The translations under genes were made by a program, and so were the position numbers. Shown here piece after piece: positions 11,710-47,915 of a stretch of 50,220 bases of DNA. A model generated the notes under the pieces. It was not told where the DNA came from, did no database searches, and worked only from the letters and a program-made list of their open reading frames with translations. This DNA is from an uncultured Candidatus Saccharibacteria bacterium (GTDB lineage: Bacteria > Patescibacteriota > Minisyncoccia > Phycocordibacterales > GWA1-40-21), in contig CAZLRP010000003.1 of assembly GCA_964562105.1 (NCBI GenBank), positions 15,718-65,937 on the forward strand. The letters run 5' to 3'. Each line of letters starts with the position of its first letter. The stretch's first letter is position 1.

Positions 11710-11721
11710 AATTGTGTTTAA

Positions 11722-11811: not shown

Positions 11812-11874
11812 AGATTACAATTGAAAAAAAACAATAAACAAGCTATTATCATGATGGTCTCAAAGAATATTTAG

Positions 11875-12098: not shown

Positions 12099-12171
12099 GC
12101 CACCTTAGCTCAGTTGGTAGAGCACCACTTTCGTAAAGTGGGGGTCCCCGGTTCGATCCTGGGAGGTGGCT
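12099..12171 (+). tRNA. tRNA-Thr(CGT)
   Basis: Acceptor GCCACCT/AGGTGGC; anticodon CCACT-TTCGTAA-AGTGG; T loop TTCGATC. Confidence 0.95.
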
Positions 12172-12177
12172 CATGGA

Positions 12178-12298
12178 ATCCCGTACGAAATCGCGGACGC
12201 GAATTAGTGCGGGGAACAAGCGGTTGATTTTATTAGTTAATTATAATGGGATAGCCGACAAAATTTATATTTCGTCCGCGTCCTATTTCGTACGGGAT
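12178..12298. repeat. Inverted-repeat element enclosing a putative -10 box and abutting the prfB start
   Basis: ATCCCGTACGAAAT/ATTTCGTACGGGAT (14 bp) plus inner CGCGGACG/CGTCCGCG; TATAAT at 12242-12247. Confidence 0.65.
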
Positions 12299-13169
12299 GG
12301 AAGATATGGAGAAAAAAATCAAAGAACTTGAAAAAGAGATGATGTCTCCGGATTTTTGGAATGATAAAGCCAAGGCCCAGGCGATATTGAAAGAGCTGAA
12401 TTTTTTAAAATCCGAAGTTTTAGGAAAAGATAAATATAATAAAGGTCATGCCATTATGACTATTTTTTCCGGAGCAGGCGGGGATGATGCGGAAGATTTT
12501 TCGCGAATCTTATTTGAAATGTATTCAAAATTTTTTACAAAAAATATTTGGGATTACAAAATACTGGATGAAACTGAAAATGATCATGGCGGATACAGAA
12601 ATATTACGATTGAAGTTTTAGGTCCAAATGCTTACGGACTTTTAAAACATGAATCGGGAGTTCATCGTCTCGTGCGTCTTTCGCCGTTCAATTCCAAAAA
12701 TTTAAGACAAACTTCTTTTTCCCTTGTTGAAGTCGTGCCAAAAATTGAAAAAGATGCCGACATACAAATATCAGAGAATGATTTGAGAATAGACATTTCA
12801 AAAGCGGGAGGCCCGGGAGGACAAAATGTAAACAAAAGAGAAACTGCGGTAAGAATAACTCATATTCCGACTGGCATATCTGTAAGGTGCACTTCACAAA
12901 GGTCTCAAGCGCAAAATAAAGAAAAAGCGATTCAAATCCTCAAAGGAAAATTATTCAAACTTAGGGAAGAAGAAAACATAACGAGACATGAGGGATTACA
13001 TATAAGCAAGTCCACTTCAATAGAATGGGGAAATCAGATTCGTTCTTATGTATTTCATCCATACAAAATGATTAAAGACCATCGTACGAATGTTGAAACG
13101 AGCAATATTGATAAAGTTTTGAACGGAGATCTCGATGAATTTATTGAAAAGGAGAAAACTCTTGGGTAA
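12297..13169 (+). CDS. prfB: Peptide chain release factor 2 (shortened N-domain)
   Basis: SPF tripeptide (RLVRLSPFN), GGQ (GGPGGQNVNK), WGNQIRSYV. The start may be the second Met. Confidence 0.9.
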   Translation: MEDMEKKIKELEKEMMSPDFWNDKAKAQAILKELNFLKSEVLGKDKYNKGHAIMTIFSGAGGDDAEDFSRILFEMYSKFFTKNIWDYKILDETENDHGGYRNITIEVLGPNAYGLLKHESGVHRLVRLSPFNSKNLRQTSFSLVEVVPKIEKDADIQISENDLRIDISKAGGPGGQNVNKRETAVRITHIPTGISVRCTSQRSQAQNKEKAIQILKGKLFKLREEENITRHEGLHISKSTSIEWGNQIRSYVFHPYKMIKDHRTNVETSNIDKVLNGDLDEFIEKEKTLG

Positions 13170-15793: not shown

Positions 15794-16579
15794 ATGTTAA
15801 AAAGTACAAATCATTTAAAATCTATTCTCTCCTACATCCTCGGAGCCACTCTCGTAATTGGGGGAGTAGTCTTTGCTGGTACACTTACTCCTTCAGTAAG
15901 CATAGATACAGCAAACTTTGTAACTTTATCTGACATATACAACAAAATCATACTGAATACATACTCTACTTCTACTCACTCAATATCCACCACATCAGCT
16001 CCTGTAGCATCAATGTACACTCTTCTTGAAATATGGAATGGAATCCCCGCAATTGACTCCAGTAAAATGCTAGATACATACTCTCTAATGGGAGTTACAG
16101 GCGCAATAGCCGTAAAAACAAACGATAATGCAGTTACAATCACTTCCACTTCTACAAACAAACTTCTTCTTACTGTTCCAGCAGGTTATTATGGCGGTTC
16201 TGCTACTGTTTCTACAACTTCCACTTCTTTTGACCCCGCTAATATTGCAAATGGGGTGAATATTTTTGGAATCACAGGAACATTAGGAGTAGTATGGGAT
16301 ACTGCCGAGGTTGGTACTATGGATTGGGCTACAGCCGTCTCTACTTGCACAGGACGTGGATCCAGACTTCCAACTGAAGGAGAATTAATGAAGGGGTTAT
16401 CTGATCAATTTATACAGAGTCCAGCGATAGCTGATGGTTTTGTTCAAGAGGATTCTTATTGGTCAAGCAATGTGTTTTCATTTAATGACAGTTATGCTTG
16501 GCAAGCTTCAGCTGGCGAAAGTATAATGAGTGGTACTGGAGTAAAAACCTCTCTTGGATTAGTACGTTGTGTTCACTAG
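15794..16579 (+). CDS. Surface protein with a C-terminal DUF1566/CLec-like domain (paralog 1)
   Basis: Signal/TM, Thr/Ser-rich stalk, C-terminal RLPTEGEL..YWSS..AW..LVRCVH. Confidence 0.75.
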   Translation: MLKSTNHLKSILSYILGATLVIGGVVFAGTLTPSVSIDTANFVTLSDIYNKIILNTYSTSTHSISTTSAPVASMYTLLEIWNGIPAIDSSKMLDTYSLMGVTGAIAVKTNDNAVTITSTSTNKLLLTVPAGYYGGSATVSTTSTSFDPANIANGVNIFGITGTLGVVWDTAEVGTMDWATAVSTCTGRGSRLPTEGELMKGLSDQFIQSPAIADGFVQEDSYWSSNVFSFNDSYAWQASAGESIMSGTGVKTSLGLVRCVH

Positions 16580-16656: not shown

Positions 16657-17370
16657 GTGTTAAAATTCTCAAATTTTTTTAAACATCTTCTTTCGTACAT
16701 TCTCGGAGCCACTCTCGTAATTGGGGGAGTAGTCTTTGCCGGTACACTTACTCCTTCAGTAAGCACAGATACGGCAAACTTTGTAACTTTATCTGATATA
16801 TACAACAAAATTATACTGAATACATACTCTACTTCCACTCACTCTATATCCACCACATCAGCTCCAACTGCTTCAATGCATACACTATATGAAATATACA
16901 ATATCATACCTACCTTATTACCTGCCACTATTCTCACCAATACCACCATTATGGGTGTAGCAGGAACTTACAACACATCAAATCTTATCCCAGGTAATGT
17001 AGCTACAGGAACCGCTTATGGAACAAGTTCTGTGGGGACTCTTGTTGAAGCACAAGCTACGGAGTGGGATGCAACTGATAATCCTGCCGGTAATGTTAAT
17101 TGGTTTGCGGGAGGTACGTATTGTGCCAGTCTTTCATCAGTCGGAGGAACAAAAGACGGAATGCCTTGGAGATTGCCATCGCAAACTGAATTGATAGCTA
17201 AATATAACGGAGATCATTCTGGTTTTGAGGAGTACGGTACGTATTGGTCTGGTACTACGGATACAGATCCGGAACACAGTGACTCCGCCTACGGTGTCCA
17301 TATGACATTTGGTCCCGCATGTTGCGCTAGCAAATTATATCTAACCGCGCTTATTCGCTGTGTTCGTTAA
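16657..17370 (+). CDS. Surface protein with a C-terminal DUF1566/CLec-like domain (paralog 2)
   Basis: N-terminal ~80 aa nearly identical to paralog 1; C-terminal WRLPSQTEL..YWSGT..AY..LIRCVR. Confidence 0.75.
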   Translation: MLKFSNFFKHLLSYILGATLVIGGVVFAGTLTPSVSTDTANFVTLSDIYNKIILNTYSTSTHSISTTSAPTASMHTLYEIYNIIPTLLPATILTNTTIMGVAGTYNTSNLIPGNVATGTAYGTSSVGTLVEAQATEWDATDNPAGNVNWFAGGTYCASLSSVGGTKDGMPWRLPSQTELIAKYNGDHSGFEEYGTYWSGTTDTDPEHSDSAYGVHMTFGPACCASKLYLTALIRCVR

Positions 17371-17404
17371 TTTACCTCTATTTTCACACAATGTAGTGTA
17401 GTTC

Positions 17405-17476
17405 TTGACAAACCACCTAAACAAATCTATAATCAAGATAGAAAGTCATTGCTGATTCTGATGAATCGGTGAGTTG
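17405..17476 (+). promoter_or_regulatory. Sigma70 promoter plus conserved structured 5' leader, copy 1
   Basis: TTGACA-N17-TATAAT, then TAGAAAGTCATTGCTGATTC-TGAT-GAATCGGTGAGTTG; homologs at 20214 and 22453. Confidence 0.85.
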
Positions 17477-17523
17477 AAAAATAAAAAATCTGATAAAAAG
17501 GACGTTCCTTAAAGGAGGACGAT

Positions 17524-20178: not shown

Positions 20179-20213
20179 TAATAATCCTAAAAAGGGGAGT
20201 ATCTGTGTAGCCC

Positions 20214-20285
20214 TTGACAAACCACCTAAACAAATCTATAATTAAGGTAGAAAGTCATTGCTGATTCTGAAGAATCGGTGAGTTG
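20214..20285 (+). promoter_or_regulatory. Sigma70 promoter plus structured leader, copy 2
   Basis: First 29 nt (TTGACA..TATAAT) identical to copy 1; leader TAGAAAGTCATTGCTGATTCTGAAGAATCGGTGAGTTG. Confidence 0.85.
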
Positions 20286-20312
20286 TTAAAATAAAAAAAG
20301 AGGAGGTTTGTC

Positions 20313-22436: not shown

Positions 22437-22452
22437 GGTAAGTATCCATTTC

Positions 22453-22523
22453 TTGACAAATAATTAAATTGTTCTATAATCGTGGATAGAAAGTCATTGC
22501 CGATTCGAAGAATCGGTGAGTTG
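22453..22523 (+). promoter_or_regulatory. Sigma70 promoter plus structured leader, copy 3
   Basis: TTGACA-N16-TATAAT; TAGAAAGTCATTGCCGATTC-GAA-GAATCGGTGAGTTG. Confidence 0.85.
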
Positions 22524-22561
22524 TTAAAATTCAAAAAATCTTTGGAAAAAGGAGGTGTGAG

Positions 22562-23208: not shown

Positions 23209-23823
23209 CTATCGTTTATATAAGATTTTTATAACCCCAATTAATTCAGGAAAGTTTCTGATATTAAAATGTCCCCTATCATTGAATGAGTTTGAAGAAG
23301 CATTTGGTAATTTTTCTTTATATTTTTCAAAATCAGTAAAAGGAACAATTTTATCGTCTGTGCTATGGAAGAGAATAATATCTTTTACTTGGTTAATGAC
23401 ACTTTGAAAATCATCATTGAACAGGAAGTCGGTATTTATATTATAGTTATTATTTTTTCCACTGTAAGGTGGTGCTATAAGAATAAGAGCTTTAACTTTT
23501 TTAGGGAATAGTGATTCTGACAAATATTTCACTAGAAACAAGCCACCCAAAGAGTGTCCTATTAAAGTGATGTCATCATCTAAAAATGGTATGAGTTTTT
23601 CAAACCAAATTTTCCATTCAGTATATTTCGCATTTTCTTTATTCGGCATCCTAGGAGTAAATATTTCAAATTCATTTCTAAGATTTTCTTCAAAATCATC
23701 CTTCCAGTCTTTTCTTGATATAAAATCATCTCTACTAACTTTTTTTTCTTTTAGTCGAACTAAAAAGTCGTCTTTTGTATCATATACATATCCTCCATGA
23801 ATAATTACAATCTGTTTTTTCAT
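23209..23823 (-). CDS. Alpha/beta hydrolase, RBBP9/YdeN family
   Basis: IIHGG, IGHSLGG nucleophile elbow, HSTDDKIVP, DRGHF. Confidence 0.85.
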   Translation of the reverse strand: MKKQIVIIHGGYVYDTKDDFLVRLKEKKVSRDDFISRKDWKDDFEENLRNEFEIFTPRMPNKENAKYTEWKIWFEKLIPFLDDDITLIGHSLGGLFLVKYLSESLFPKKVKALILIAPPYSGKNNNYNINTDFLFNDDFQSVINQVKDIILFHSTDDKIVPFTDFEKYKEKLPNASSNSFNDRGHFNIRNFPELIGVIKILYKR

Positions 23824-23838
23824 ATTTTATCAAATTAA

Positions 23839-25092
23839 CTATGACATTACTAAAACTTGTGCAGTATCATCTGAATCCTTTTTAGAAAAAACTGTATGAC
23901 CTCTTTTTGTTTCAATTATTAATTTTCCTTTATATTTAGGATAATTGTTTGTCACAATTTTTTCTACCAAGCCATAATTCTCAACTATATTTAAACCAGC
24001 TTTGGGGCATAAATTAATTAAAAGAGTACTCGTGATTGATATAGTAGACCATACATTATAGTTATTTTTGCATAAGTTGGCAACTAGTTCAACTATTTTT
24101 TCAGAATTAACGGCTGAGGTCGCATAGAGCCTTTCTCCATCAATTAAACAACATGAAAGAATATTTCCTTCATTATCTAATTCATAAGCTACCGAATTAA
24201 TTTTATCATTGAATAGTTTGGTCGGATCAAATCTTTTACCAAACTGTGAAGCGACAAAAGCAGATAATTTAGTTTTTACATCAGGAACTAGTTCTTCAAC
24301 TGAGCTTGAGAAAAATCCATCAGAAACTTTTAATTTTTGTTTTTTTATATTTAGATCATCAAAAATACCTTTTGTGTCGTAACCTTCAAACAGATCCAAT
24401 ATTTGTCCCGAGTTAATATTTCCAAACAGTGGTTTAAGTTTATGGCGTCTGTGCGGATTTTTTGCAAAAAAATCAATAACCATAGGTAATGATTCATTAA
24501 TTATATTCATCGTTTCTTCCGAAACTTTTAAATCAGGGATTCTGGATATTTGCTTAAGTGCACTAATAATTTTCATTGGATCATTCTTTGCCAGCTCAGC
24601 GTCCATGAATCTAAATTCCTTGTTCATAATTTCTAACTGAAAATCAGGGTTTAATATTTTTAATGAGTCTAAATCAAAAGCACAGCAACTTAAATTTGAA
24701 TCAGCAGTTGCAATAAGCTCAGAAACCGTTTTTTCTCCAATACTAGCAACCTGTATTTCTTTTCCATTCAACATATAATTAAAAACATTAGCATCTTTTT
24801 TAAAGGAGTATTTTCCTTCGACGAATTTTACATCTTCCTCCCAATCCATTTCAGTAAACCCTAAGCTTTCCAGATTTTTTTTAATATCTTCCACTGACAT
24901 TCTAGACATAAAATCGAAGTCAGCTGGATATTTATGAAGAATAATATCTCTAACTGCACCACCGATTAAAAAACTGTTATTTCCAAATATTTTTATAGAT
25001 TCATTAATTGGCAGTAATTCTATGATTTTGTTCTCGACTCTTGAAATTTCCCCCGTTTCTTTCGGGTCTAAATTTGAGGGTATTTTTTCCAT
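23839..25092 (-). CDS. Divergent class II tRNA nucleotidyltransferase/poly(A) polymerase-family protein with an unknown C-terminal domain
   Basis: IGGAVRD..YPADFDF (motif A); the later RRDFTIN and DPLRxxR motifs are degenerate. Confidence 0.7.
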   Translation of the reverse strand: MEKIPSNLDPKETGEISRVENKIIELLPINESIKIFGNNSFLIGGAVRDIILHKYPADFDFMSRMSVEDIKKNLESLGFTEMDWEEDVKFVEGKYSFKKDANVFNYMLNGKEIQVASIGEKTVSELIATADSNLSCCAFDLDSLKILNPDFQLEIMNKEFRFMDAELAKNDPMKIISALKQISRIPDLKVSEETMNIINESLPMVIDFFAKNPHRRHKLKPLFGNINSGQILDLFEGYDTKGIFDDLNIKKQKLKVSDGFFSSSVEELVPDVKTKLSAFVASQFGKRFDPTKLFNDKINSVAYELDNEGNILSCCLIDGERLYATSAVNSEKIVELVANLCKNNYNVWSTISITSTLLINLCPKAGLNIVENYGLVEKIVTNNYPKYKGKLIIETKRGHTVFSKKDSDDTAQVLVMS

Positions 25093-25934: not shown

Positions 25935-27572
25935 ATGGATCATAATTTAATTACGAATCTTGAAACTTGTTTGCCCTCACTTATGGATGTTCTAAATGGA
26001 AATCTCAATTTATTATACTATTCGCATTTACCAACAATAATTATTTCTTTATTTTTAGGTTTTTTTGTTTTATTCAAAAGCAGAGAAAAATTATTATCTA
26101 GAGTTTTCTTTTTTTTATCTCTAGTTTTTGCTTTATGGTCAATTCTAGATTTGTATACATGGTTAAGTTTTGATACCAGAATAATAATGTTTACATGGTC
26201 ACTTACTGGTTTAGTGGAAGTTCTTTTCTTTGTCCTAAGTTTCTATTTTTTGTATGTATTTTTTGAAAAGAAAGATGTTCTCTTTAGATATAAACTACTC
26301 GGAGTAATTATCTTGCTGCCTTTAATTATAATGATACCTTTAAAGCTTAATCTATTAGGATTTAATTCTGATGGGTGTTATGCCTTAGAAAATAATTACT
26401 CCCTATATTATAAATATTTTATTGAAATAATCCTATCCATTATTATTGTTATCTTTTCTTTAATAAAAATTCGACAACAAGTAGATAAAAATTTAAGAAA
26501 ACAATTAGTATTTTTGTTTTGGGGAATTATGTTGTTTCTTTTTTCTTTTTTCTCTGCTGTATTTTTAAGTGGTTATTTGGTAGATGCAGGTTGGGGAGTC
26601 AAAGGTTACAGTGTTGAGATTTATGGTTTGTTTGGAACTATTATTTTTATGGCCTTTCTTGCATATCTCATCGTTAAATTTAAAGCCTTCAATATCAAAC
26701 TCATCGGTGCGCAGGCGCTTGTTTGGTCACTTATAATTATTATTGGTTCTCAGTTTGCTTTTATACAAAATCCAACAAACAAAATTCTCACGACTATTAC
26801 ATTGATTATTTCTGGTGTAGTTGGTCTCATGATTGTTCGTGGGGTAAAAAAAGAAATTTTTCTTCGAGAAAAGCTTGAAGTGGCAAATGCGGGACAAGCA
26901 AACCTTATCCATCTTATGAATCATCAGATTAAAGGATATTTAACTATCAGTAAAAATGTTCTAGCGGAACTTCTCACGGATGATTATGGCAAAGTACCGG
27001 AAGAAGCAAAAGAAATAATTACAAAAGGTTTGGAAAGTTCCAACAGAGGAGTCAGATATGTCACGGATATATTGAAAGGAGCAAGCGCAGAAAGCGGAAC
27101 TCTGACTTACAATATGCAAAAAATTGATTTCAAGGAAATCGTTTTGACTACGATTGAAAGCAGAAAAGAAATAATAGAAAATAAAAAGCTGAAACTTGAA
27201 GTAGATATTGCAGATGGCGACTATAATATGACGGGTGATAGATCACAGCTTGGAGAGGCCGTCAGAAATCTGATAGAAAATTCTGTTTATTATACTATCG
27301 CAGGAGGGATAGCTATTCATTTGAAACACAAGGCCGGAAAAATACTTTTTTCAGTGAAAGATACAGGTGTTGGAATCAAACATGAAGATAGATCTAAAAT
27401 ATTCAAAGCCGGAGGTGTTGGTAGCGATTCCATAAAAATAAACGTTAATAGCTCAGGTTATGGTCTTGCTTTTGTAAAAGGTGTAGTAGAAAAACATAAT
27501 GGCAAAGCTTGGTTTGAATCCGCCGGTGCTGGCCACGGCTCAACTTTCTTCGTAGAACTGCCGGTGGAATAA
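25935..27572 (+). CDS. Sensor histidine kinase with a multi-TM (HisKA_7TM-like) N-terminus
   Basis: H-box MNHQIKGYL, N-box NLIENS, DTGVGI, GYGLAFVK, GHGSTFFVELP. Confidence 0.9.
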   Translation: MDHNLITNLETCLPSLMDVLNGNLNLLYYSHLPTIIISLFLGFFVLFKSREKLLSRVFFFLSLVFALWSILDLYTWLSFDTRIIMFTWSLTGLVEVLFFVLSFYFLYVFFEKKDVLFRYKLLGVIILLPLIIMIPLKLNLLGFNSDGCYALENNYSLYYKYFIEIILSIIIVIFSLIKIRQQVDKNLRKQLVFLFWGIMLFLFSFFSAVFLSGYLVDAGWGVKGYSVEIYGLFGTIIFMAFLAYLIVKFKAFNIKLIGAQALVWSLIIIIGSQFAFIQNPTNKILTTITLIISGVVGLMIVRGVKKEIFLREKLEVANAGQANLIHLMNHQIKGYLTISKNVLAELLTDDYGKVPEEAKEIITKGLESSNRGVRYVTDILKGASAESGTLTYNMQKIDFKEIVLTTIESRKEIIENKKLKLEVDIADGDYNMTGDRSQLGEAVRNLIENSVYYTIAGGIAIHLKHKAGKILFSVKDTGVGIKHEDRSKIFKAGGVGSDSIKINVNSSGYGLAFVKGVVEKHNGKAWFESAGAGHGSTFFVELPVE

Positions 27573-27577
27573 GATTT
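27538..27577 (+). repeat. Kinase 3'-end direct repeat, copy 1 (native)
   Basis: GCTCAACTTTCTTCGTAGAACTGCCGGTGGAATAAGATTT; 40-bp identical copy at 29418-29457, 34-bp copy at 28775-28808. Confidence 0.9.
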
Positions 27578-27709
27578 TTTTCAAAAATTTATAAAATCAT
27601 TGTTTTTTAAGATATTTGACTTTTATCTATTCGCCTGGTACACTCCGTCTCGGGTATCTTAAATGTTTTAAGATAAATCAAGTACTTTAATAGAAAGGAG
27701 GTAGCAAAT

Positions 27710-27934
27710 ATGGCTAAAAAGAAGTTTTCTCGTAAAGAAAGATCAGATGCTGATGGCTTTTTTGTGTCAGGCCCCACTTTTATTACAAACAGAAGAACGT
27801 GCGTTTCTGTTAAGATAATGAGAAGTGCTGTCAAAGTTAGGCACACAAAGGATCACGGACGTATTCTGACTTTTAGCCACCCCGAATGGAAAGCGTTCAT
27901 CAAGGGGGTGAAAGACAATGAGTTTGATTTGTAA
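27710..27934 (+). CDS. DUF397 (BldB-like) domain protein
   Basis: CVSV...VKVRHTKD.G..LTFSHPEWKAFIKGVKDNEFDL matches the DUF397 pattern CVEV..V.VRDSK..G..L.F...W..F..GVK..EF. SD GAAAGGAGGT, promoter TTGACT-N17-TACACT, terminator at about 27947-27989. Confidence 0.8.
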   Translation: MAKKKFSRKERSDADGFFVSGPTFITNRRTCVSVKIMRSAVKVRHTKDHGRILTFSHPEWKAFIKGVKDNEFDL

Positions 27935-28004
27935 TAACTCATTAGAATATCCACAACCTTTGTAATTTAGAGGTTGTGGATGTTTTTTTATATTAATAAT
28001 ATAT

Positions 28005-28721
28005 ATGAAAATAAAAATAGAGTTAAAAAATAAAAAAAGTAAGTATATTTATGGTGATATGCTTAAAAATAAAAAAGCAAAAACTCTTGTGTTATTTATG
28101 AGTGGTTTTTCTGGTGGCAGAAATTCAAAACTTTTTGTAAATGCATCAAACGTTTTTTTAAAAAATGGTTTTGACACCTTACGATTTAATTTTTTTCAAG
28201 AAAAAGGAACAAATAATACCTTAAGACCGGAAGAAATTTCCTTTTCTGTTTATGCCTCTGAATTGGCAAATATTATAAATCATTTCGAAAAGAGATACTC
28301 AAGAATTATTTTGGTTGGTCATAGTTTTGGGACAATAATATCAATATTATTTTTAAATAAATATAGAAAATATATAAAAAAAATTGGACTCGTTTTTTGG
28401 GAACCAACGCTTTTGCCATGGAAAGAAAAATTTATGAAAGAAGATTTTATTTTTGATATAAAGAAAAAAATATATTATGGAAAAAACACTAAAGAGATTA
28501 TGAATGAAATTTTTTATCAAGAATGTATTACTACAAACATATCTAAAATTTTTCACTCATTGAACAAAAATACTTGTGTTTTTGCTGCGAAAAATAGCGC
28601 AGACAAAGATGCTACTAAATTTAGTTCCAAACCTATAATTATAAAGAACACAAATCATTTTTTTGACGGCAAGAATGCCCAAAAGGAATTATTTGATAAA
28701 ACAATAAAATTCTTGAGATAA
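28005..28721 (+). CDS. Alpha/beta hydrolase
   Basis: MSGFSGG, DTLRFNF, VGHSFGT nucleophile elbow, NHFF. Confidence 0.8.
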   Translation: MKIKIELKNKKSKYIYGDMLKNKKAKTLVLFMSGFSGGRNSKLFVNASNVFLKNGFDTLRFNFFQEKGTNNTLRPEEISFSVYASELANIINHFEKRYSRIILVGHSFGTIISILFLNKYRKYIKKIGLVFWEPTLLPWKEKFMKEDFIFDIKKKIYYGKNTKEIMNEIFYQECITTNISKIFHSLNKNTCVFAAKNSADKDATKFSSKPIIIKNTNHFFDGKNAQKELFDKTIKFLR

Positions 28722-28774
28722 TAGTTAAACTGGCAAGAGAAACATTTATAAAATATATGTATAATAAAGGTTAC

Positions 28775-28808
28775 ACTTTCTTCGTAGAACTGCCGGTGGA
28801 ATAAGATT
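28775..28808 (+). repeat. Kinase 3'-end direct repeat, copy 2
   Basis: 34 bp identical to 27543-27576. Confidence 0.9.
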
Positions 28809-28814
28809 ATTTTT

Positions 28815-28889
28815 GAAACAAAAAGAGGGCACACTGTCTTTTCTAAGAAAGATTCCAATGATACTCCTCAGGTTTTGGTAATGTCATAA
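28815..28889 (+). pseudogene. Orphan 3' tail (24 codons plus stop) of a homolog of the 23839-25092 gene
   Basis: ETKRGHTVFSKKDSNDTPQVLVMS* vs ETKRGHTVFSKKDSDDTAQVLVMS* (22/24 aa identical). Confidence 0.85.
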
Positions 28890-28902
28890 TTAATATATAA
28901 AT

Positions 28903-29409
28903 ATGAACAAACAAAATATCGGTTATATTGCGGCAGATTTTCAAGAAAAAGATAAAATAGAAATCATAAATTGGTCAAAAACCATACGAGATAATGATTT
29001 ATACATTACTTCAATTGATGGAAAAACCAAAGGGGGTCATATGACAGACGATTTACATTTAACCTTCTTTTATGGTCTTGATGAGGATCTTATTAATAAA
29101 AATGATGTTCAAGATTTTATCAATACCATTAATCTAGAAAGCATAGAAATAGGTAAAATTGATATTTTTCCAGTAGCAGATCAAACTTGTGAAGTTTTAT
29201 ATTTATCTGTAGAAGATCAACTTGGTAAGATTAGAAAATATAATGAAACATTTAAAAAATTTCCGCATTTTACTGAATTTCAAAAAAAAGAATTTATACC
29301 TCATATCACAATTGCATTTGTAAAAAAGGGATTTGATGTAAATAAATTTACTTATACTGGTTCAAAAATTTTAAATATCAAAGAAATAATTCATCATTTT
29401 AAAATTTAG
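28903..29409 (+). CDS. 2H phosphoesterase superfamily protein (two HxT motifs)
   Basis: DLHLTFFYG and FIPHITIAF; N-terminal GYIAADFQE. Confidence 0.8.
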   Translation: MNKQNIGYIAADFQEKDKIEIINWSKTIRDNDLYITSIDGKTKGGHMTDDLHLTFFYGLDEDLINKNDVQDFINTINLESIEIGKIDIFPVADQTCEVLYLSVEDQLGKIRKYNETFKKFPHFTEFQKKEFIPHITIAFVKKGFDVNKFTYTGSKILNIKEIIHHFKI

Positions 29410-29417
29410 AAACAACA

Positions 29418-29457
29418 GCTCAACTTTCTTCGTAGAACTGCCGGTGGAATAAGATTT
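29418..29457 (+). repeat. Kinase 3'-end direct repeat, copy 3
   Basis: 40 bp identical to 27538-27577. Confidence 0.9.
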
Positions 29458-29604
29458 GTTATTTTATTAAATTAAATATACATAATTACAAGAATTTGAC
29501 ATATTTATAATTTACTTGTATTATCAAATGTAGAAGTATAGGGAAGAAGATAAATTCTATCCTGTTGAAAAATAGCGCCAAAGCGCAAAAAAAGGAGGTT
29601 CATC

Positions 29605-30699
29605 ATGTTATGTCCATCTATTGTTAGTATTCCAATTACACCCCGTAGTACCCCAAAGCTTGGACTTATGCTCATTCCATTTATCATGGATGTCATAGGT
29701 AATAAGATGGGACTTGATAAGGTATTGGCGCTCAATGTTAGTGGTTCTAAATTATTCAATGACAATGTTGAAAGTTGTGTTCAAGAATATTTTCAAGCCA
29801 ATTCTGGGCTGGGAATTGCTCCAGATTATATCTGGAGAGATGATCAGAAAGAGAATATCTATTGGATAAATATTCTATTTCAACAACTTGTAGCTGATGG
29901 GTATGTATTTAGAGATGAGAGACTCATATTACGTTGTCCTTGTCGTGTGGTAGAAACTTTGGCATTAGCTGATAATATCTCAAATACAAGGAGATTGTAT
30001 GAACGAGTAGGCAATGTTGTACATTGTAAAATATGTGGAGGAGCAATACTTCAAGAAAAAGATAATGTTTATCTATTTCAAGTCCCAGATTTGTTAATCG
30101 ATTGGCACATTACTCCAGTTTTTACCAAAATGGAAATCGTTAATTTAGCAAAGAAATTTGCTGGAGTTCAACTTCTTATTTCTAGAACAAGACCTTCTGC
30201 AATTCCTCTTTGGACAGGGAAAGAGTACATTTTTTTAGATGTTGATTTTGGTTGGCAATTATTTCTACCGATATTGAGTCGTCTCGGTCATAAACCAGAG
30301 GTATTTATTGGTAGCCAAAAAAATCTATTCGGATGCTATCTTTCAATGCTATTGTCATATCTCATAGACAAGACAACTCCGGAACTTATTGTTCCTGGAT
30401 ATTGTGTGACAAAAACAATGGAAGATAAATTCATAACCGATTCTTTTTTAGAATGGAATGAATCATCCGCAAGAATTTTTTTGGCCTGTCACTCTACTTT
30501 TCGAAAGAAAGAGATTGGTTTTACTGCTTCACTACTTCCATTAATAAAAAGAATTTTACGGAAGCCACATGTTAGAGTCTTGTGTCAAAAACGTTTATCT
30601 TTATCTGAAGCAATAAATCAGTGTGACGGTTCTGTTGTTCGTAAGCTTCTTGCAACAGATAAATATGAACATGAAATATTTAGCGGTATGATACGGTAA
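29605..30699 (+). CDS. Class I aminoacyl-tRNA synthetase (MetRS-like) catalytic-domain paralog with degenerate HIGH and no KMSKS
   Basis: Colinear with MetRS: IP..TPKLGLM (LP..IHLGHM), MDV (ADV), GLGIAPDY..EN..L..DGYV, CPC/CKICG knuckle, LLISR (DISR), FIG, PGY. SD AAGGAGGT; promoter TTGACA-N17-TATTAT. Confidence 0.7.
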   Translation: MLCPSIVSIPITPRSTPKLGLMLIPFIMDVIGNKMGLDKVLALNVSGSKLFNDNVESCVQEYFQANSGLGIAPDYIWRDDQKENIYWINILFQQLVADGYVFRDERLILRCPCRVVETLALADNISNTRRLYERVGNVVHCKICGGAILQEKDNVYLFQVPDLLIDWHITPVFTKMEIVNLAKKFAGVQLLISRTRPSAIPLWTGKEYIFLDVDFGWQLFLPILSRLGHKPEVFIGSQKNLFGCYLSMLLSYLIDKTTPELIVPGYCVTKTMEDKFITDSFLEWNESSARIFLACHSTFRKKEIGFTASLLPLIKRILRKPHVRVLCQKRLSLSEAINQCDGSVVRKLLATDKYEHEIFSGMIR

Positions 30700-30730
30700 C
30701 TATTTCAATTACAAAAAGGAGGTAATAGCT

Positions 30731-31468
30731 ATGGATTCACTTAGTAGGTTTGTTGCAGAATGCGGATTTATTTTTAAGAAAAATTTACTCTGCATTCTTC
30801 TTCTCGGATCGACACAACGCGATGATAATAATCCATTCTCAGACATTGATATTGTTATTATTATCAAGACGATGGATACTAATCAAGTAGTGCAACTAAG
30901 ATCAATTACCAGATCATTAGATAAACTTCTTGATTGTTCAATCTTGTGTAAAGATGAGCTTTCGGATAACTCAAATGATTTCTGTATAGGTTCACACGGA
31001 TGCTATCAACTTGAGCTTGTATTAAAAAAAGCCAAATGTATCTGGGGAGAAAATATACTTTTATCAATGGAGAGTCCAACACAACACAAGATCAGAGTCA
31101 GTATTGCTCGTAAGGTTATTGAATACACATGGTGGATTAGAAGAATGTTTATTGAATCAAATAGAGAGAGGTCACTTGAGATGAATTATAATCTCAATAG
31201 TCGCCTTATCAAAATGATTCGAGATATTCTCTATCTTCACGGTAATACTAATAGTATAATTGACTCTGTTGAAAATATTCTAAAAATATTTATTTTAGAA
31301 TATGCTGAGATGTTTACAGAAACTGAACGATTGACGATAATCGGTCTCGGCAAAAGTAGATATATTAACACTAACACATCAAACATGAGTGATGATTATT
31401 TATTGTTAAGATATTCTATAGCCAATAAAATTCATAAGAGAGTGACTGAGATTATCAAAAGCGAGTAA
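30731..31468 (+). CDS. Pol-beta superfamily nucleotidyltransferase (minimal NTase plus helical C-domain)
   Basis: LLGST..DDNNPFSDIDIVII (GS + DxD); SD AAGGAGGT; palindrome at 31457-31488 after the gene. Confidence 0.8.
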   Translation: MDSLSRFVAECGFIFKKNLLCILLLGSTQRDDNNPFSDIDIVIIIKTMDTNQVVQLRSITRSLDKLLDCSILCKDELSDNSNDFCIGSHGCYQLELVLKKAKCIWGENILLSMESPTQHKIRVSIARKVIEYTWWIRRMFIESNRERSLEMNYNLNSRLIKMIRDILYLHGNTNSIIDSVENILKIFILEYAEMFTETERLTIIGLGKSRYINTNTSNMSDDYLLLRYSIANKIHKRVTEIIKSE

Positions 31469-31504
31469 CTTGTAAGTTACTCGCTTTTATATTATTCTAT
31501 ATTT

Positions 31505-32254
31505 ATGATATTTAGAGGAAAATTTGAGGATATTGTTTTTGAGTTCGGTGTTGTGGATAACGCTAAATGCACAGTTATTATTTGTGATGGTCTTCCCTCC
31601 GTTCCAAAACAAAAAGAACTTCTTACTTATTTGAATAATCATGGATGTAATGTTTTTTATCCTCGTTATCGTGGAACGTGGGAAAGCGGTGGAGAATTTC
31701 TCGCACAATCACCATCTAATGATATTATTGATTTCGTGGAATTTGTTAAGATGGGAGAAATTACCGAACTTTATGGTAACAAGACTTTTTCTGTAAAAGG
31801 CCCAATACACCTTATTGGATCAAGTTTTGGCGGGTCAGTAGCGCTTTCCTCAGTAGATGATTCTAATGTAGATAAAATTGTAGTATTTTCTCCAATTATT
31901 GACTTTAAATTACAAAATAATAATGGAACAGAACAAGATTTAAACTTGCTTGGAAAATTTATAACAAAAGCCTTTGGTAATGGTTATAGATATAAGAATG
32001 AGAATTGGGAGTTAATGGTGTCTGGTAAATTATTTAATCCACCTGAAATGATAGAATCTAATAGGACAAAAGATATATTAATTGCTTATGATTTATTAGA
32101 CGACACGATTGATTATCAAAAAATAATTGATTATTCTTCAAAAAATAATATCAAGAATATTCTCTCAGAGAATACTGGGCATCTAAGTTTTTCAAAAATT
32201 CCACAAAATATATGGGCACAGGTTTTTGATTTTCTTTTCTCGGATAAAAATTAA
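31505..32254 (+). CDS. Alpha/beta hydrolase (S9-like)
   Basis: CDGLPS, YPRYRGTWES, IGSSFGG, DDTI, GHLS. Confidence 0.8.
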   Translation: MIFRGKFEDIVFEFGVVDNAKCTVIICDGLPSVPKQKELLTYLNNHGCNVFYPRYRGTWESGGEFLAQSPSNDIIDFVEFVKMGEITELYGNKTFSVKGPIHLIGSSFGGSVALSSVDDSNVDKIVVFSPIIDFKLQNNNGTEQDLNLLGKFITKAFGNGYRYKNENWELMVSGKLFNPPEMIESNRTKDILIAYDLLDDTIDYQKIIDYSSKNNIKNILSENTGHLSFSKIPQNIWAQVFDFLFSDKN

Positions 32255-32278
32255 TAGAATTACCGGTGAAATAAAATT
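32255..32278 (+). repeat. Degenerate kinase 3'-end repeat, copy 4
   Basis: TAGAATTACCGGTGAAATAAAATT vs TAGAACTGCCGGTGGAATAAGATT (20/24); reads ELPVK* vs ELPVE*. Confidence 0.55.
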
Positions 32279-32286
32279 AATTATAA

Positions 32287-34110
32287 ATGGAAAATAAAAC
32301 AATAGACGATAATAAGAATAGACTTTCGTTTTGGGATTTTTTGGCCACACTAAAGTGGCTCTTTGCTTTTAATTTTAAATTATCTCCTTGGATTGCAACA
32401 TCACAGGTTATAGTTAGAATATTTTTAGATACCAGCCCGTTGCTTAATGCTTTTATTTTTGCCAAACTTTTGGACAAAATAATTAAGATTGCTAGCAGTT
32501 CAAATTCTAATCTCGATGACATTGCTCCATTATTGGGACTTTTGCTTATTTTAAATTTGGTAATTTCTGCCTTAAATTCAGCTTACACTTATGTATCTAA
32601 TATGATGATGCAAATGTCCAACTATAAAGTACCGATAATTTTAGCCAAACATATCAATTCACTTGGAATTCAAACGTTGGAAAATCCTGAGGTTGTTAAT
32701 AAAATCCAAAGAGCAAGAGAAACTATTAATTCTATAAATAATGATTTCGAAAGGATGATAATATTTGTTGCCAGAGTCATAGTATTGATTTCCGCATCAA
32801 TTATAGTTATAAAAATAATGCCACTTATAGCTCTAATTATTGTTGTTGCTATCATTCCTGAGCTTATTTGTAATAGAGTATACATGAGAAAAAATTGGGG
32901 TTTTTGGCATTCTGAAACGGAAAATAGTCGCAGGGCTTTTTCTGCCACAGGATCATTAAATGAAGTGACAAATTTGCAAGAAATAACGATTACCTCATCT
33001 TTTCGATTACTAAGTAATGTTTTTACTAATTTTACGAATTATTATATAGCTGGGCAAAGAAAAATCATGAAAAGCTGGCAGTTTTTTGGTTTTTTCTTAG
33101 GTTCAATAACAGATATTGCAAGTATTTTTGGCTATTTCTCAATTTTAAAAAATTTATTTTATAAATTAATATCTGTTGGTGATGTGACTTTCCAAATGAG
33201 AGCACTAGATATGTTTACCAATAATTTCTCGATGGTTGTTAATGGTTTTGGCGGTCTTTATGAGCGTTCTATCAGAATTAATGAAGTTAAAATCGTTTTT
33301 GATATGAAACCAATGGTAGAGGATGGCAATATAAAATTACCAAAATTAGAAATAACTCCTAGTATTAAATTTGAGAACATTAGTTTTAAATATCCCGGTG
33401 CCGATAGTTATGTTATTAAAAATCTTAATCTTGACATCAAATCCGGAGAAAAAATAGCTATAGTTGGTGAAAATGGCGCAGGTAAAACAACTTTGGTAAA
33501 ACTTTTGAGCAGGTTCTACAAAGTAGATGATGGATCTATTTTATTAAATGATATAAATATTAATAATATAGAGATAGAAAGCTGGTATAAAAATTTAGGA
33601 GTATTATTTCAAGATTACAATACTTATCCTTATTTGACGCTTAAAGAAAATATTTATCTGGGAAAGTCTGATGAACCTTTGGATATGTCTAAAATTCAAG
33701 TTGCAGCACAACAGGCAAATGTTAACTCTTTTATTGAAGGTTACAAAAATGGCTATGATCAGGTTTTGAGTGAAAAATACAAGGGAGGTACACGTCCGAG
33801 CACTGGGCAATGGCAAAAAATAGCTATAGCTAGATTTTTCTATCGTAATTCACCGGTAGTAGTGTTTGATGAACCAACCGCTTCAATAGATGCTGTTTCT
33901 GAGGCCGAAATTTTTGGCAAGATTTATGATTTCTTCACAGACAAAACGGTCATAATTATTTCTCATAGATTTTCTACAGTTCGCAATGCTGACAAGATCT
34001 ATGTTTTGGATAAGGGAGAAATAATTGAAAGTGGAAACCATGATGAACTTATAAAATTAGAAGGAAAATATTATAAAGCATTCAATATTCAAGCAAAAGG
34101 ATATAAATAG
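32287..34110 (+). CDS. ABC exporter, fused TMD-NBD
   Basis: Multi-TM N-half; GENGAGKT; variant signature PSTGQWQ; VFDEPT; SHRFSTV. Confidence 0.9.
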   Translation: MENKTIDDNKNRLSFWDFLATLKWLFAFNFKLSPWIATSQVIVRIFLDTSPLLNAFIFAKLLDKIIKIASSSNSNLDDIAPLLGLLLILNLVISALNSAYTYVSNMMMQMSNYKVPIILAKHINSLGIQTLENPEVVNKIQRARETINSINNDFERMIIFVARVIVLISASIIVIKIMPLIALIIVVAIIPELICNRVYMRKNWGFWHSETENSRRAFSATGSLNEVTNLQEITITSSFRLLSNVFTNFTNYYIAGQRKIMKSWQFFGFFLGSITDIASIFGYFSILKNLFYKLISVGDVTFQMRALDMFTNNFSMVVNGFGGLYERSIRINEVKIVFDMKPMVEDGNIKLPKLEITPSIKFENISFKYPGADSYVIKNLNLDIKSGEKIAIVGENGAGKTTLVKLLSRFYKVDDGSILLNDININNIEIESWYKNLGVLFQDYNTYPYLTLKENIYLGKSDEPLDMSKIQVAAQQANVNSFIEGYKNGYDQVLSEKYKGGTRPSTGQWQKIAIARFFYRNSPVVVFDEPTASIDAVSEAEIFGKIYDFFTDKTVIIISHRFSTVRNADKIYVLDKGEIIESGNHDELIKLEGKYYKAFNIQAKGYK

Positions 34111-34836: not shown

Positions 34837-35196
34837 TGTCATTCCCGCGTGGGCGGGAATCCAGTGTGAAATTATAATTCTAAACTTAAATCTTTCCATT
34901 CTGGATTTTCTTTTTCAATCAACCTTCTTTTCCAGAGCCTATTCCATTTTTTTATACATTTTTCTCTTGCGATTGCACTTCCAATATTCGTTGTTTGTTC
35001 ATAATATACAAGCATTTTTATATTGTATTTTTTGGTAAAACCATCAATTAAGCTATTTTTGTGTTCACATACTCTTCTCAATAAATCGTTTGTGACTCCT
35101 GTATATAATGTTCCATCACGCTTGCTTGCTAAAATATAAACGTAATAATACTTCATAAAACCATTATACTGGATTCCCGCCTACGCGGGAATGACA
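34837..35196. mobile_element. GIY-YIG nuclease gene bracketed by 29-bp inverted palindromic repeats (putative small selfish element)
   Basis: Left TGTCATTCCCGCGTGGGCGGGAATCCAGT (34837-34865); right ACTGGATTCCCGCCTACGCGGGAATGACA (35168-35196); 1 mismatch. Confidence 0.7.
34872..35156 (-). CDS. GIY-YIG nuclease (YhbQ/UPF0213-like)
   Basis: YYVYILAS..GTLYTGVT..RRV.EH..AIAREK.IKKW.R.WK..LIE..NP.W.DL. Confidence 0.9.
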   Translation of the reverse strand: MKYYYVYILASKRDGTLYTGVTNDLLRRVCEHKNSLIDGFTKKYNIKMLVYYEQTTNIGSAIAREKCIKKWNRLWKRRLIEKENPEWKDLSLEL

Positions 35197-35248: not shown

Positions 35249-36034
35249 ATGACCAACAAAAACAGAGTATTTGCTATAGTGCTTTTTGTCATAATCACAG
35301 GAGGACTAGTACTTTTATATTCAGGTTTTTTTAATTTTCATGCTCCAGACTTGAGAACTTACAAGGGTTGGATGCCTGCACTTATTGGTACTGCTGCCTT
35401 GGTGGATAGTGTTAACCCATGTGCTTTTTCTGTACTATTCTTATCAATTACTTTCTTATTTGGCTTGGGTAAATCAAGAAGGGATGTTGTAAAAGCAGGT
35501 TTAGCTTATGTTTTTGGAATTTTTGCTACCTATACTTTGATAGGACTTGGCATTTTGAAAGTTTTAAGTTTGTTTAATATACCGAATCTAATGTCAAAAA
35601 TAGGAGCAACAGCAATTATAACTTTTGGTGTCGTAGCTCTCATAAATGAATTTTTTCCAAATTTCCCCATAAAGCTTAAAATCCCAAAATTTGCTTACGG
35701 AAATATTGCCAAACTTATGGAAAAAGCTACTCTGCCGGCAGCACTTTTACTAGGTTTTGTTGTAGGTCTTTTTGAATTTCCTTGTACCGGAGGGCCATAT
35801 TTATTTGTACTCGGACTTTTGCATGATGAAAGTAATTTTTTAAAAGGATTGGTATATTTGTTGTTTTATAATCTTGTATTTGTGCTTCCTCTCATTGTTA
35901 TTTTAGCAATATCTGTGAATAAAAAGGTGCTTCAAGTTGTTGATAATATAAGAAGAGCAGAAACCAAAAAAGCTAGAATATGGCTGGCTCTCGCTATGAT
36001 ATTTTTGGGTTCGCTCGTTTTTATGATAAACTGA
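35249..36034 (+). CDS. CcdA/DsbD-beta-like membrane electron transporter
   Basis: DSVNPCAF and FEFPCTGGPY Cys-Pro motifs; multi-TM. Confidence 0.8.
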   Translation: MTNKNRVFAIVLFVIITGGLVLLYSGFFNFHAPDLRTYKGWMPALIGTAALVDSVNPCAFSVLFLSITFLFGLGKSRRDVVKAGLAYVFGIFATYTLIGLGILKVLSLFNIPNLMSKIGATAIITFGVVALINEFFPNFPIKLKIPKFAYGNIAKLMEKATLPAALLLGFVVGLFEFPCTGGPYLFVLGLLHDESNFLKGLVYLLFYNLVFVLPLIVILAISVNKKVLQVVDNIRRAETKKARIWLALAMIFLGSLVFMIN

Positions 36035-43620: not shown

Positions 43621-43775
43621 CAATATCCAGTTTATTTTTTGCCTACATTTAATAAAGAGTATATGGTTTTTTGTAAAGTTTTGTGGTACTATAGCATCCG
43701 TGGCTTTTTCTTTTTGTGTCAGACAGGCCTATTCTTGTTTTTCGAGGCGGGAATAATCAAATCAATTTAATAGTA

Positions 43776-43917
43776 AATCCGCACACTAACTCTGTCATTG
43801 TGTTTTTTGTTACCAAGAGAGATTTGCAAAATTATAAGCAAATTTTCTTGATAAAAGAAAATAATATCGTTAATTATTAAGAACACAATGTAACGATGAC
43901 AGAGTTAGTGTGCGGAT
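43776..43917. repeat. ATCCGCACACTAACT inverted-repeat element, copy 2, directly upstream of lemA
   Basis: 22-bp perfect arms ATCCGCACACTAACTCTGTCAT/ATGACAGAGTTAGTGTGCGGAT plus inner TGTGTT/AACACA. Confidence 0.8.
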
Positions 43918-43929
43918 AAAATCAAAAAT

Positions 43930-44487
43930 ATGACAGGATATATAATATTGGGTATTTTGGTAGTTTTTGTGTTTTGGGCGATTTTTGCTTACAATAAATT
44001 TGTTACTCTTATAAATAGAGCTAAAGAAGCATGGTCAGACATAAATGTACAATTAAAAAGAAGGTATGATCTTATTCCAAATCTTGTAAATACGGTCAAA
44101 GGATATGCTACTCATGAAAGCGAAGCTTTTGAAAATGTTACAAAGGCAAGGGCTCAAGCTATGGGGGCACAAAATATTGTAGATAAAGGTAAAACAGAAA
44201 ATATGCTCACAAGCGCTTTGAAATCTGTTTTTGCGGTGGCGGAAGCTTATCCGGATTTGAAAGCCAACCAAAATTTCTTATCTTTGCAAACAGAGCTTTC
44301 TGATACAGAAAATAAAATTCAAGCTTCAAGAAGATTTTATAATGGAAATGTCAGAGATTTGAATATTGCCGTAGATTCGTTTCCTAGCAATATTATCGCA
44401 AGAGCTTTTCATTTTGTAAAAATGGAACTCTTTACTCTAGACGAAAGCGAAGCTGCTGCAAAGCAACCAGTTGAAGTTAAGTTCTAA
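43930..44487 (+). CDS. lemA: LemA family protein
   Basis: YNKFV..EAWSDINVQLKRRYDLIPNLVNTVKGYA; AEAYPDLKANQNF; RRFYN..V. Confidence 0.95.
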   Translation: MTGYIILGILVVFVFWAIFAYNKFVTLINRAKEAWSDINVQLKRRYDLIPNLVNTVKGYATHESEAFENVTKARAQAMGAQNIVDKGKTENMLTSALKSVFAVAEAYPDLKANQNFLSLQTELSDTENKIQASRRFYNGNVRDLNIAVDSFPSNIIARAFHFVKMELFTLDESEAAAKQPVEVKF

Positions 44488-47906: not shown

Positions 47907-47915
47907 AAACAAAAT

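Follow-up and report, generated by a model that had tools for sequence, protein, structure and literature searches.

We analysed a stretch of 50,220 nucleotides (the window) from an uncultured Candidatus Saccharibacteria bacterium (assembly GCA_964562105.1, contig CAZLRP010000003.1, positions 15,718 to 65,937), with a focus on a gene for a seven-transmembrane (7TM) sensor histidine kinase and the 4.7 kb of DNA behind it. The window is AT-rich, and the relatives of the kinase come almost solely from metagenome-assembled genomes (MAGs) of the Parcubacteria/Paceibacteria type, which belong to the Candidate Phyla Radiation (CPR). Copies of the kinase 3' end divide this DNA into three modules, which we term cassettes A, B and C (Table 1). 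The original prediction, made from the letters of this DNA, had described serial gene accretion at the kinase 3' end with no integrase in view, and had offered as explanations either an att-like hotspot served in trans or homology-anchored capture of cassettes, giving an integron-like array.

Table 1. Features of the kinase locus, in window coordinates.
Feature	Position	Strand	Remarks
PolyA_pol-like + Ser_hydrolase two-gene module	23209-25092	-	Pfam; insertion relative to relatives
7TM sensor histidine kinase	25935-27572	+	HATPase_c + HisKA_7TM (Pfam); proposed homologous anchor; left border of the variable interval
Repeat copy 1, resident kinase 3' end	27535-27580	+	...STFFVELPVE-stop plus 8 nt past the stop; reference copy of the repeat family
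Cassette A	27581-28766	+	Promoter-like site (27616-27644), DUF397 gene, terminator-like hairpin, alpha/beta hydrolase
DUF397 gene, cassette A	27710-27934	+	Pfam
Alpha/beta hydrolase, cassette A	28005-28721	+	Pfam
Kinase-tail relic, copy 2	28767-28812	+	89% versus copy 1; exact 34 bp at 28775-28808
PolyA_pol-like 3'-end relic	28813-28913	+	Last 24 codons + stop, then spacer; truncated left end of cassette B
2H/LigT-like phosphoesterase, cassette B	28903-29409	+	Weak family matches only
Kinase-tail relic, copy 3	29415-29460	+	96% versus copy 1; exact 40 bp at 29418-29457
Cassette C	29461-32254	+	Promoter-like site (29496-29524) and three genes
MetRS-like catalytic-core paralogue, cassette C	29605-30699	+	AF2 model + Foldseek
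Pol-beta-type nucleotidyltransferase, cassette C	30731-31468	+	Pfam
Alpha/beta hydrolase, cassette C	31505-32254	+	Pfam
Degenerate kinase-tail relic, copy 4	32251-32280	+	ELPVK-stop; 12 nt upstream of the ABC transporter gene
Conserved ABC transporter gene	32287-34110	+	Opens the ancestral downstream block; aa identity 74% to L009, 79% to L088
Conserved membrane protein, DsbD_TM/SfLAP-like	35249-36034	+	Right border of the lineage-wide variable interval

Three of the four copies of the kinase tail are near-identical, span 34-46 bp and have a common right edge, TAAGATT. The two exact identities, which had been predicted at just these positions, were recovered by a repeat search, and the 30-mer TTCTTCGTAGAACTGCCGGTGGAATAAGAT from the kinase tail occurs exactly three times in the window with 0.00 occurrences expected. 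The predicted fourth copy likewise stood up: it agrees in 22 of its 30 bases, with 0.005 equally good matches expected per shuffled window, and its core at 32257-32274, GAATTACCGGTGAAATAA, translates as ELPVK-stop (0.05 such matches expected). All four differences in this 18-mer are GC-to-AT changes, and the kinases of the relatives end in the same ELPVK-stop. This copy, sitting just before the conserved ABC transporter gene, is probably the original kinase end. In the intergenic DNA of the window we found no further gene-tail relics beyond the kinase copies and a single relic of a PolyA_pol-like gene, and on this ground we rejected the idea that tail relics are a genome-wide feature.

Pfam searches upheld the predicted gene content of the three intervals, with the match for the 2H phosphoesterase of cassette B being weak (Pfam 2_5_RNA_ligase2, E 0.0014; NCBIfam 2',3'-cyclic phosphodiesterase, E 2e-4). 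The promoter-like site of cassette C is a strong one, with 11 of 12 consensus bases. Its first gene had been labelled as resembling methionyl-tRNA synthetase (MetRS), and the predicted structure agrees: the top Foldseek matches of the AlphaFold2 (AF2) model (pLDDT 88) are all MetRS catalytic cores (E ~2e-14, TM 0.6-0.7). On account of this aminoacyl-tRNA synthetase (aaRS) fold we rejected the idea that the protein is a hidden recombinase; a sequence search of PDB with the same protein returned only noise. The three hydrolases are not paralogues of each other, neither PADLOC nor NCBIfam assigned a firm function to any cassette gene, and an Rfam search of the interval returned no match. The PolyA_pol-like relic that directly abuts the second kinase-tail copy matches window 23915-23813 over 103 bp at 83.5% identity (a copy of 82-103 nt at ~84%), its resident counterpart being the minus-strand gene at 23839-25092.

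Variation and gene-end relics in related genomes

For comparison we used 58 species-representative Parcubacteria/Paceibacteria loci with an orthologous kinase (individual loci are given as L numbers). The gene for the conserved membrane protein directly follows the kinase in L022 and L023, and is separated from it by 0.8-6.3 kb with other genes inside in L013, L061, L038, L009, L001 and L067; in L009 the orthologue of the ABC transporter gene comes after the kinase and before the same downstream genes. The gap is 7.7 kb in the window and thereby ranges, over nine loci, from about 0-60 bp to 7.7 kb with differing genes, while the seven cassette genes of the window are absent from this position in all 58 loci. 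At closer range, a comparison of L001 with L067 and L059 (~91% identical) reveals an 862-bp one-gene insertion within the kinase terminator hairpin, with more single-gene differences beyond. Upstream, the genes o_22562 and hyp_25157 and the kinase are adjacent in the relatives, without the PolyA_pol-like and hydrolase pair of the window. Since the kinase adjoins the downstream conserved genes in relatives, the interval is a lineage-wide hotspot of frequent gene turnover. Exact look-ups of the kinase and 2H proteins returned no record, and a metagenome scan with a degenerate tail pattern recovered 13 loci, none closer than ~72% nucleotide identity to the window locus.

The same variable interval also houses a gene for a 94-aa GIY-YIG nuclease (34872-35156, minus strand), which lies in a unit at 34837-35196 flanked by 29-nt inverted repeats that are 97% complementary. 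The inverted repeat of this unit also forms a gene-less palindrome at 3427-3498, and homologues of the nuclease are found at other positions in L013, L061 and L080. The unit looks mobile, and the nuclease could itself stimulate recombination locally.

Querying each locus with its own kinase end, we found relics of the kinase 3' end downstream of an intact kinase in 6 of the 47 other species-level loci with at least 1 kb of downstream sequence. These are L019 (688 bp, 68%, still an open reading frame of 268 aa), L040 (203 bp, 85%; 50 bp, 92%), L050 (76 bp, 88%), L049 (83 bp, 75%), L052 (132+44 bp, 83%; 99 bp, 81%) and L051 (39 bp, 90%). At least seven species-level lineages have such a kinase-end array at this gene. 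Taken with the relatives, in which the kinase adjoins the downstream genes or has different genes there, and with the greater decay of the copy farthest from the kinase, these independent relics uphold the predicted serial accretion.

The relics end on the right mostly at the stop codon or within ~10 nt of it, one L052 relic stopping ~96 nt short, while their left ends are highly scattered, from ~30 to 688 bp upstream of the stop across lineages. The kinase tails themselves vary between relic-bearing lineages; L050, for instance, ends in ...QQTKELLERWG-stop. These patterns bear on a site-specific explanation, whereby the last 35-45 bp of the kinase act as an attB and a tyrosine or serine recombinase encoded elsewhere placed small integrase-less cassettes with a matching attP there, one behind the other. 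Insertion at the 3' end of a gene, with the gene restored in the process, is a classic integrase signature, and it would produce copies like the three of the window, near-identical, similar in length and flush at the right edge. However, relic lengths of 39-688 bp mean that there is no single att core, and lineages with different kinase tails, such as L050, have relics all the same.

Two further observations concern the contents of these islets. In L019 an intact 268-aa open reading frame (ORF; 11743-12549) right after the full kinase corresponds to the cytoplasmic half of the kinase with 64% aa identity; here, the kinase end, once displaced, may have persisted as a gene for a soluble kinase. 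Further, genes for aaRS or aaRS-like proteins recur in the islets behind the kinase (L040 11742-12953, L050 13265-16511, L052 8924-9862, L051 14525-14833 and window 29605-30699), the types being tyrosyl-tRNA synthetase (TyrRS), a class II aaRS-like protein, tryptophanyl-tRNA synthetase (TrpRS) plus a TrpRS fragment, and the MetRS-like core. The class II aaRS-like gene adjoins one for a putative MccF-like LD-carboxypeptidase, as judged from its sequence. The 10 largest ORFs scanned within or a short way past the L040 and L050 inserts code for TyrRS, radical SAM, kinase-like ATPase, Fic, AbiEii, HD, methyltransferase and class II aaRS-like proteins.

The diverged relics carry a record of their history in the codon positions at which they differ from the resident gene. 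We examined L040, L050 and the PolyA_pol-like relic of the window; the identical kinase copies of the window are uninformative for this test. Differences fall at the third codon position in 25 of 30 cases in L040, 7 of 9 in L050 and 11 of 13 in the PolyA_pol-like relic, and in 3 of 5 in the second, short L040 relic. Pooled, this amounts to 46/57 (81%), with P = 2.7e-13 against even decay and P = 0.015 even when half of the changes are assumed to lie in a constrained copy. In L040, 24 codons differ synonymously and 3 non-synonymously. This bias indicates that the copies diverged as working genes in different lineages and were then joined by recombination.

It also rules out local duplication followed by decay. 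A tandem duplication of the kinase end and the DNA downstream of it, with subsequent divergence and gene loss, would yield direct repeats in the same orientation as seen here, but the three intervals hold unrelated genes with non-paralogous hydrolases, and for the modules, nearer relatives are found in other genomes than in this one. With the third-position bias added, we consider this origin scarcely credible.

For the loci tested, the same bias rules out assembly error. The concern for the window is that strain variants differing in the genes behind the kinase were strung together in assembly at the 34-40 bp they share: the window is part of an assembled 65.9-kb contig, several metagenome or MAG contigs break at or just past the kinase end, and repeat-bounded segments form graph cycles in L076. 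The latter is a 2,907-bp 'circular' contig with identical 60-bp ends, which we rejected as evidence for a circle since a cycle in the assembly graph, running through the 67 identical bp of the L075 repeats described below, explains it. Yet the left junction of each relic is unique, joining a cassette end to the tail at -34 or -46, and has to come from real molecules. The copies differ in length, as a fixed k-mer overlap would not, are shorter than ordinary reads at 34-46 bp, and include a degraded fourth member that cannot be an overlap artefact, while independent assemblies from other studies show relics diverged to 85-92%, which are not collapsible repeats. A chimera is thus highly improbable; the order of the cassettes, as opposed to their junctions, rests on one assembly, and at most this order would be wrong.

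Portability of the modules and the search for a recombinase

The MetRS-like family has about 20 members, the source-named ones being from Paceibacterota/Nomurabacteria, and the same two genes, for the nucleotidyltransferase and the hydrolase, come after it in every case and in the same order. This trio (module C) occurs in six genomic contexts: after the kinase in the window, after a Wzy_C/TPR gene in L072, before grpE-dnaK in L075, in a repeat-partitioned array in L077, after lemA-htpX and beside a serine recombinase and a restriction-modification system in L079, and between the genes for DoxX and aspartyl-tRNA synthetase in L080. It is flanked in L072 by a 227-bp repeat (90%) of the Wzy_C gene end plus terminator and in L075 by a 151-bp repeat (96%) of the grpE upstream region plus first 22 codons, whereas three contexts are without any flanking repeat. 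Flank alignments from four contexts revealed neither conserved ends nor inverted repeats at the module. Duplicated gene ends are therefore not restricted to the kinase, given the PolyA_pol tail in the window, the Wzy_C gene end in L072 and the grpE start region in L075.

The other cassettes have counterparts as well. L087 possesses a PolyA_pol orthologue (71% identical) directly followed by a 2H gene with 53% aa identity to that of cassette B, and in an alignment window 28827-29404 is colinear with this polyA_pol-to-2H junction; this colinearity identifies cassette B as a 5'-truncated piece of such a pair. The left end of the cassette is an illegitimate joint inside a gene rather than the boundary of an element. 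The gene pair of cassette A is found in L088 behind an orthologue of the ABC transporter gene of the window (ABC_32287; 79% identical) and a NUDIX gene, and L075 has a DUF397 homologue followed by a Hydrolase_4 gene. The PolyA_pol-like and Ser_hydrolase pair is also present in L082-L086. All three cassettes are thus portable modules that are present elsewhere in Paceibacteria.

Several side observations attach to these modules. Members of the PolyA_pol-like family (window 23839-25092; L082-L087) show faint matches to Pfam 'Gad2' and are partnered by a Ser_hydrolase or a 2H phosphoesterase; in L082-L085 the gene is found near VirB4/VirD4-like genes and an AbiEii toxin. The module may have an accessory nucleotide- or RNA-modifying function. 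L077 (and also L078) has five direct copies of GTTCTAAACCYATCTAMCCACCGA, at 1336-1359, 3632-3655, 4836-4859, 5559-5582 and 6347-6370, one between successive genes and just upstream of module C. The series starts at the 3' end of a truncated large-serine-recombinase gene that retains only Zn_ribbon_recom, and it appears to be a genuine repeat-partitioned array of cassettes of a different kind. In L088 a tandem 135-bp duplication (6769-7036; 88%, copies contiguous) comes straight after the hydrolase of the DUF397 pair, and may be a footprint of the same recombination process.

The window, as had been noted, has no integrase: Pfam searches of its 40 ORFs detected no integrase, transposase or resolvase/recombinase domains, the sole mobile-type gene among them being the small GIY-YIG nuclease. 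Similarly, no recombinase is encoded by the 10 largest ORFs in or just beyond the L040 and L050 inserts, and the kinase-tail pattern, used as a probe for the attP of a phage or other element, had no matches in 2.9 million viral contigs. The recombinase with an att matching the repeat, which the original prediction had proposed to seek, was thus found neither in the window nor, by its tail pattern, among the viral contigs.

These results extend the case regarding site-specific integration. In its favour, module C has a large serine recombinase as its neighbour in L079, and surrogate gene ends borne by an element would show synonymous divergence just as the relics do. However, the same module is found at unrelated 'targets' with unconserved ends, the PolyA_pol, Wzy_C and grpE ends are duplicated in the same way as the kinase end, and cassette B begins within a truncated foreign gene. 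Moreover, large serine recombinases leave only crossover identities of ~2 bp rather than repeats of 34-227 bp. The predicted att-like hotspot served in trans consequently fits the data poorly, and we consider site-specific integration unlikely.

The absence of recognizable ends might instead point to an undescribed form of mobility that dispenses with a recombinase, in which staggered breaks followed by fill-in leave target-site duplications of tens to hundreds of bp, with gene ends favoured. Each well-bounded insertion is indeed flanked by a direct repeat of local sequence of 30-227 bp, and the module ends display no recognisable site. Nevertheless, fresh duplications should decay evenly over the codon positions rather than show the observed third-position excess, the flanking repeat of L072 differs by ~5% in its coding and ~16% in its non-coding part (a by-eye count from the alignment), and three contexts of module C have no repeat at all. 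We know of no bacterial mechanism that produces such target-site duplications, and regard this form of mobility as improbable, more so than site-specific integration.

Probable homology-anchored capture at the kinase end

We consider it fairly probable that the segment 27573-32286 is an accessory islet that arose by homology-anchored, RecA-type capture of three modules at the kinase-end hotspot; of the explanations first proposed, it is such capture that fits the data. Under this model, three small self-contained modules would have been added singly next to the kinase, from related bacteria bearing a different module at or near their own kinase, by the homologous recombination machinery of the host with the kinase gene as the homologous anchor. 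This could proceed by two routes. In the first, an incoming fragment with the end of a kinase orthologue and its neighbours would be circularised and integrate by a single crossover. In the second, homology-facilitated illegitimate recombination (HFIR), its non-homologous end would be joined just inside the recipient's kinase end. Either would leave an intact kinase followed by the new genes, with the previous kinase end shifted downstream as an orphan scar, such that the newest cassette would be closest to the kinase and the oldest scar, copy 4, the most decayed. A scar once formed may also serve as a short portable homology arm, with cassette and scar then moving together between strains. 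We infer the RecA-type enzyme, the DNA entry route, the choice of route and the order of events from these patterns; natural transformation is a plausible mode of entry.

Both routes would explain the variable relic length, the synonymous relic differences, the involvement of other gene ends, and the missing element ends and recombinase. The repeat would end at the stop codon because the similarity between donor and recipient goes no further. The window scars would be only 34-46 bp because long identical repeats would be lost by recombination and the donors were near-identical. As the long relics elsewhere are diverged, such repeat loss may account for the short scars of the window, with detection bias contributing.

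Several points weigh against homology-anchored capture. The similar lengths and the single right edge TAAGATT of the window copies are also what a defined att core would give. It is unlikely that three random illegitimate joints would all fall in the last 46 bp of a 1.6-kb gene; they would call for selection against long identical repeats, co-inheritance of scar and cassette, or later trimming. At 34-46 bp, the repeats are close to the shortest homology that still allows efficient RecA-mediated crossover. The inverse trend of relic length versus identity is partly a detection bias. Module C adjoins a complete large serine recombinase in L079 and lies near the truncated one in L077, and the recombinase scan covered 50 kb of the genome, so that such an enzyme may be encoded elsewhere in it. 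Finally, the presence, absence and order of modules were compared at species distance or more, the nearest sequence having ~72% nucleotide identity.

A variant of the same idea, to which we give a modest chance, is a recombinase-free cassette system of the CPR in which small modules travel as a unit with a short copy of the end of a host gene; the copy would act in an attC-like manner, with RecA-dependent excision as a circle and reinsertion after the same gene in other cells. If true, the integron would have a counterpart based on homologous recombination, at work at the kinase as well as other conserved genes.

The locus is not an integron or a demonstrated integrase island. The predicted integron likeness holds as a loose analogy, in that ordered small cassettes separated by repeats lie beside a fixed platform gene. 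It does not extend further: no IntI is present, no Phage_integrase domain being found in the 40 window ORFs, and in place of attC sites the repeats are the last codons of the neighbouring kinase gene, with the module C flanks lacking conserved sequence in the four aligned contexts. Further, rather than promoterless single-ORF cassettes, A and C have their own promoter-like sites and contain 2 and 3 genes respectively, three being the most in any cassette. Staphylococcal cassette chromosome (SCC) elements at rlmH and islands at tRNA and transfer-messenger RNA (tmRNA) genes have a defined att core and a dedicated recombinase. They resemble the kinase locus in the regenerated gene end, the direct repeats that bound units, the tandem accretion and the existence of units without a recombinase. 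However, instead of a constant extent, the repeat measures 34-46 bp in the window and 39-688 bp in other lineages with different left ends, and instead of a single target per element, module C occupies a kinase end, a Wzy_C end, a grpE start and three other sites; ends are not conserved and a recombinase was not seen in the ORFs searched. Nor does the kinase repeat, which is coding sequence, show the palindromic Xer/dif architecture of two 11-bp arms and a 6-bp spacer (28 bp) that flanks each module in IMEX and pdif modules.

Closer parallels exist in systems driven by homologous recombination. When DNA with one-sided homology was introduced into E. coli, 56 of 60 clones resulted from a single crossover of a circular molecule, and 14 sequenced clones had 109-950 bp of the homologous gene end duplicated (Amarir-Bouhram et al., 2011; PMC3240628). 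As here, such Campbell-type integration gives an intact gene, foreign DNA and a partial gene-end duplicate of variable length, but it involved laboratory plasmid conjugation in E. coli, whereas the natural relics here go down to 34 bp. Arrays of orphan 3' ends in type VI secretion system (T6SS) and Rhs loci have been attributed to HFIR-type capture (Kirchberger, 2017; PMC5361080), which cites Jackson (2009) for sequential displacement in loci of the Rhs/contact-dependent inhibition (CDI) type. These arrays share with the kinase locus a conserved upstream gene part as anchor, displacement of the previous 3' end, which is kept downstream with its genes, a proximal position of the newest unit and the lack of involvement of an integrase. 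The kinase loci likewise have a conserved anchor gene followed by orphan 3' ends, each with different downstream genes, and orphan ends that derive from other alleles or lineages (L040, L050 and the PolyA_pol-like relic of the window, per the 46/57 third-position differences). They differ in that the anchor is a sensor kinase with a non-polymorphic C-terminus, the cargo consists of unrelated accessory modules rather than toxin tips and immunity genes, the window scars are just 34-46 bp and the host is a CPR bacterium.

Integrase-free hotspots that owe their turnover to recombination in the core genes on either side are common, above all in species capable of transformation (Oliveira et al., 2017; PMC5635113). 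Like these, the kinase loci have differing gene content between the same conserved flanks, seen over nine loci, with mobility proteins absent. However, the model for those hotspots is a scarless double crossover in both flanks, while here one side is resolved in or just after the anchor gene, duplicating its end. Patescibacteria are reported to retain recombination genes as well as comEC and pilus genes for uptake (PMC12455944). Functionally, the locus is closest to sequential-displacement arrays and to hotspots free of mobile genetic elements, and it differs from these in its host, anchor and cargo.

Other features of the window and implications

Outside the kinase locus, three copies (17396-17505, 20205-20299 and 22450-22556; 79-93% identity) of a unit with a TTGACA/TATAAT promoter, a conserved 50-nt leader with a GATTC...GAATC hairpin and a ribosome-binding site precede radical SAM/SPASM, GNAT and small membrane-protein genes. 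This unit has no Rfam match and may be a shared cis-regulatory leader. At 3277-3361 there is a c-di-GMP-II riboswitch, whose 59.5 bits exceed the gathering score; downstream of it, camelysin-like (Peptidase_M73), signal-peptidase and LamG/LTD surface-protein genes form a cluster. Long palindromes of 58 nt and ~125 nt, perfect or nearly so, occur at 11035-11236 and 11704-11828. Sequences with 89-97% identity to their core are found in the variable intervals of L061 and L067, compared to ~70% for neighbouring genes, and Rfam returned only spurious miRNA matches for them. They may be elements of the repetitive extragenic palindromic (REP) or miniature inverted-repeat transposable element (MITE) kind. 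A 170-bp repeat (43765-43932 versus 47757-47918; 77%) is found upstream of lemA and of a large reductase-like gene at 47916, with a ~40-nt piece of it at 3724-3766 upstream of 3827, and may represent a shared promoter or leader. Lastly, the genes at 15794-16579 and 16657-17370 have a 240-bp 5' part in common (15795-16034 versus 16658-16897; 87% identity) and different 3' parts, forming a pair with a conserved head and a variable tail.

The CPR/Patescibacteria have tiny genomes in which few mobile elements can be recognised, and their means of gene gain are poorly understood. The kinase locus and its relatives provide sequence-level scars of such entry: genes coming in beside a conserved gene, from related lineages and integrase-free, with the displaced gene end left behind. 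The trio of MetRS-like protein, nucleotidyltransferase and hydrolase, with its six contexts, is an example of a portable module of unknown function. If the process is general, a search for orphan gene ends would provide a simple map of recent gene gain in uncultured bacteria and define the portable modules that take part in it.

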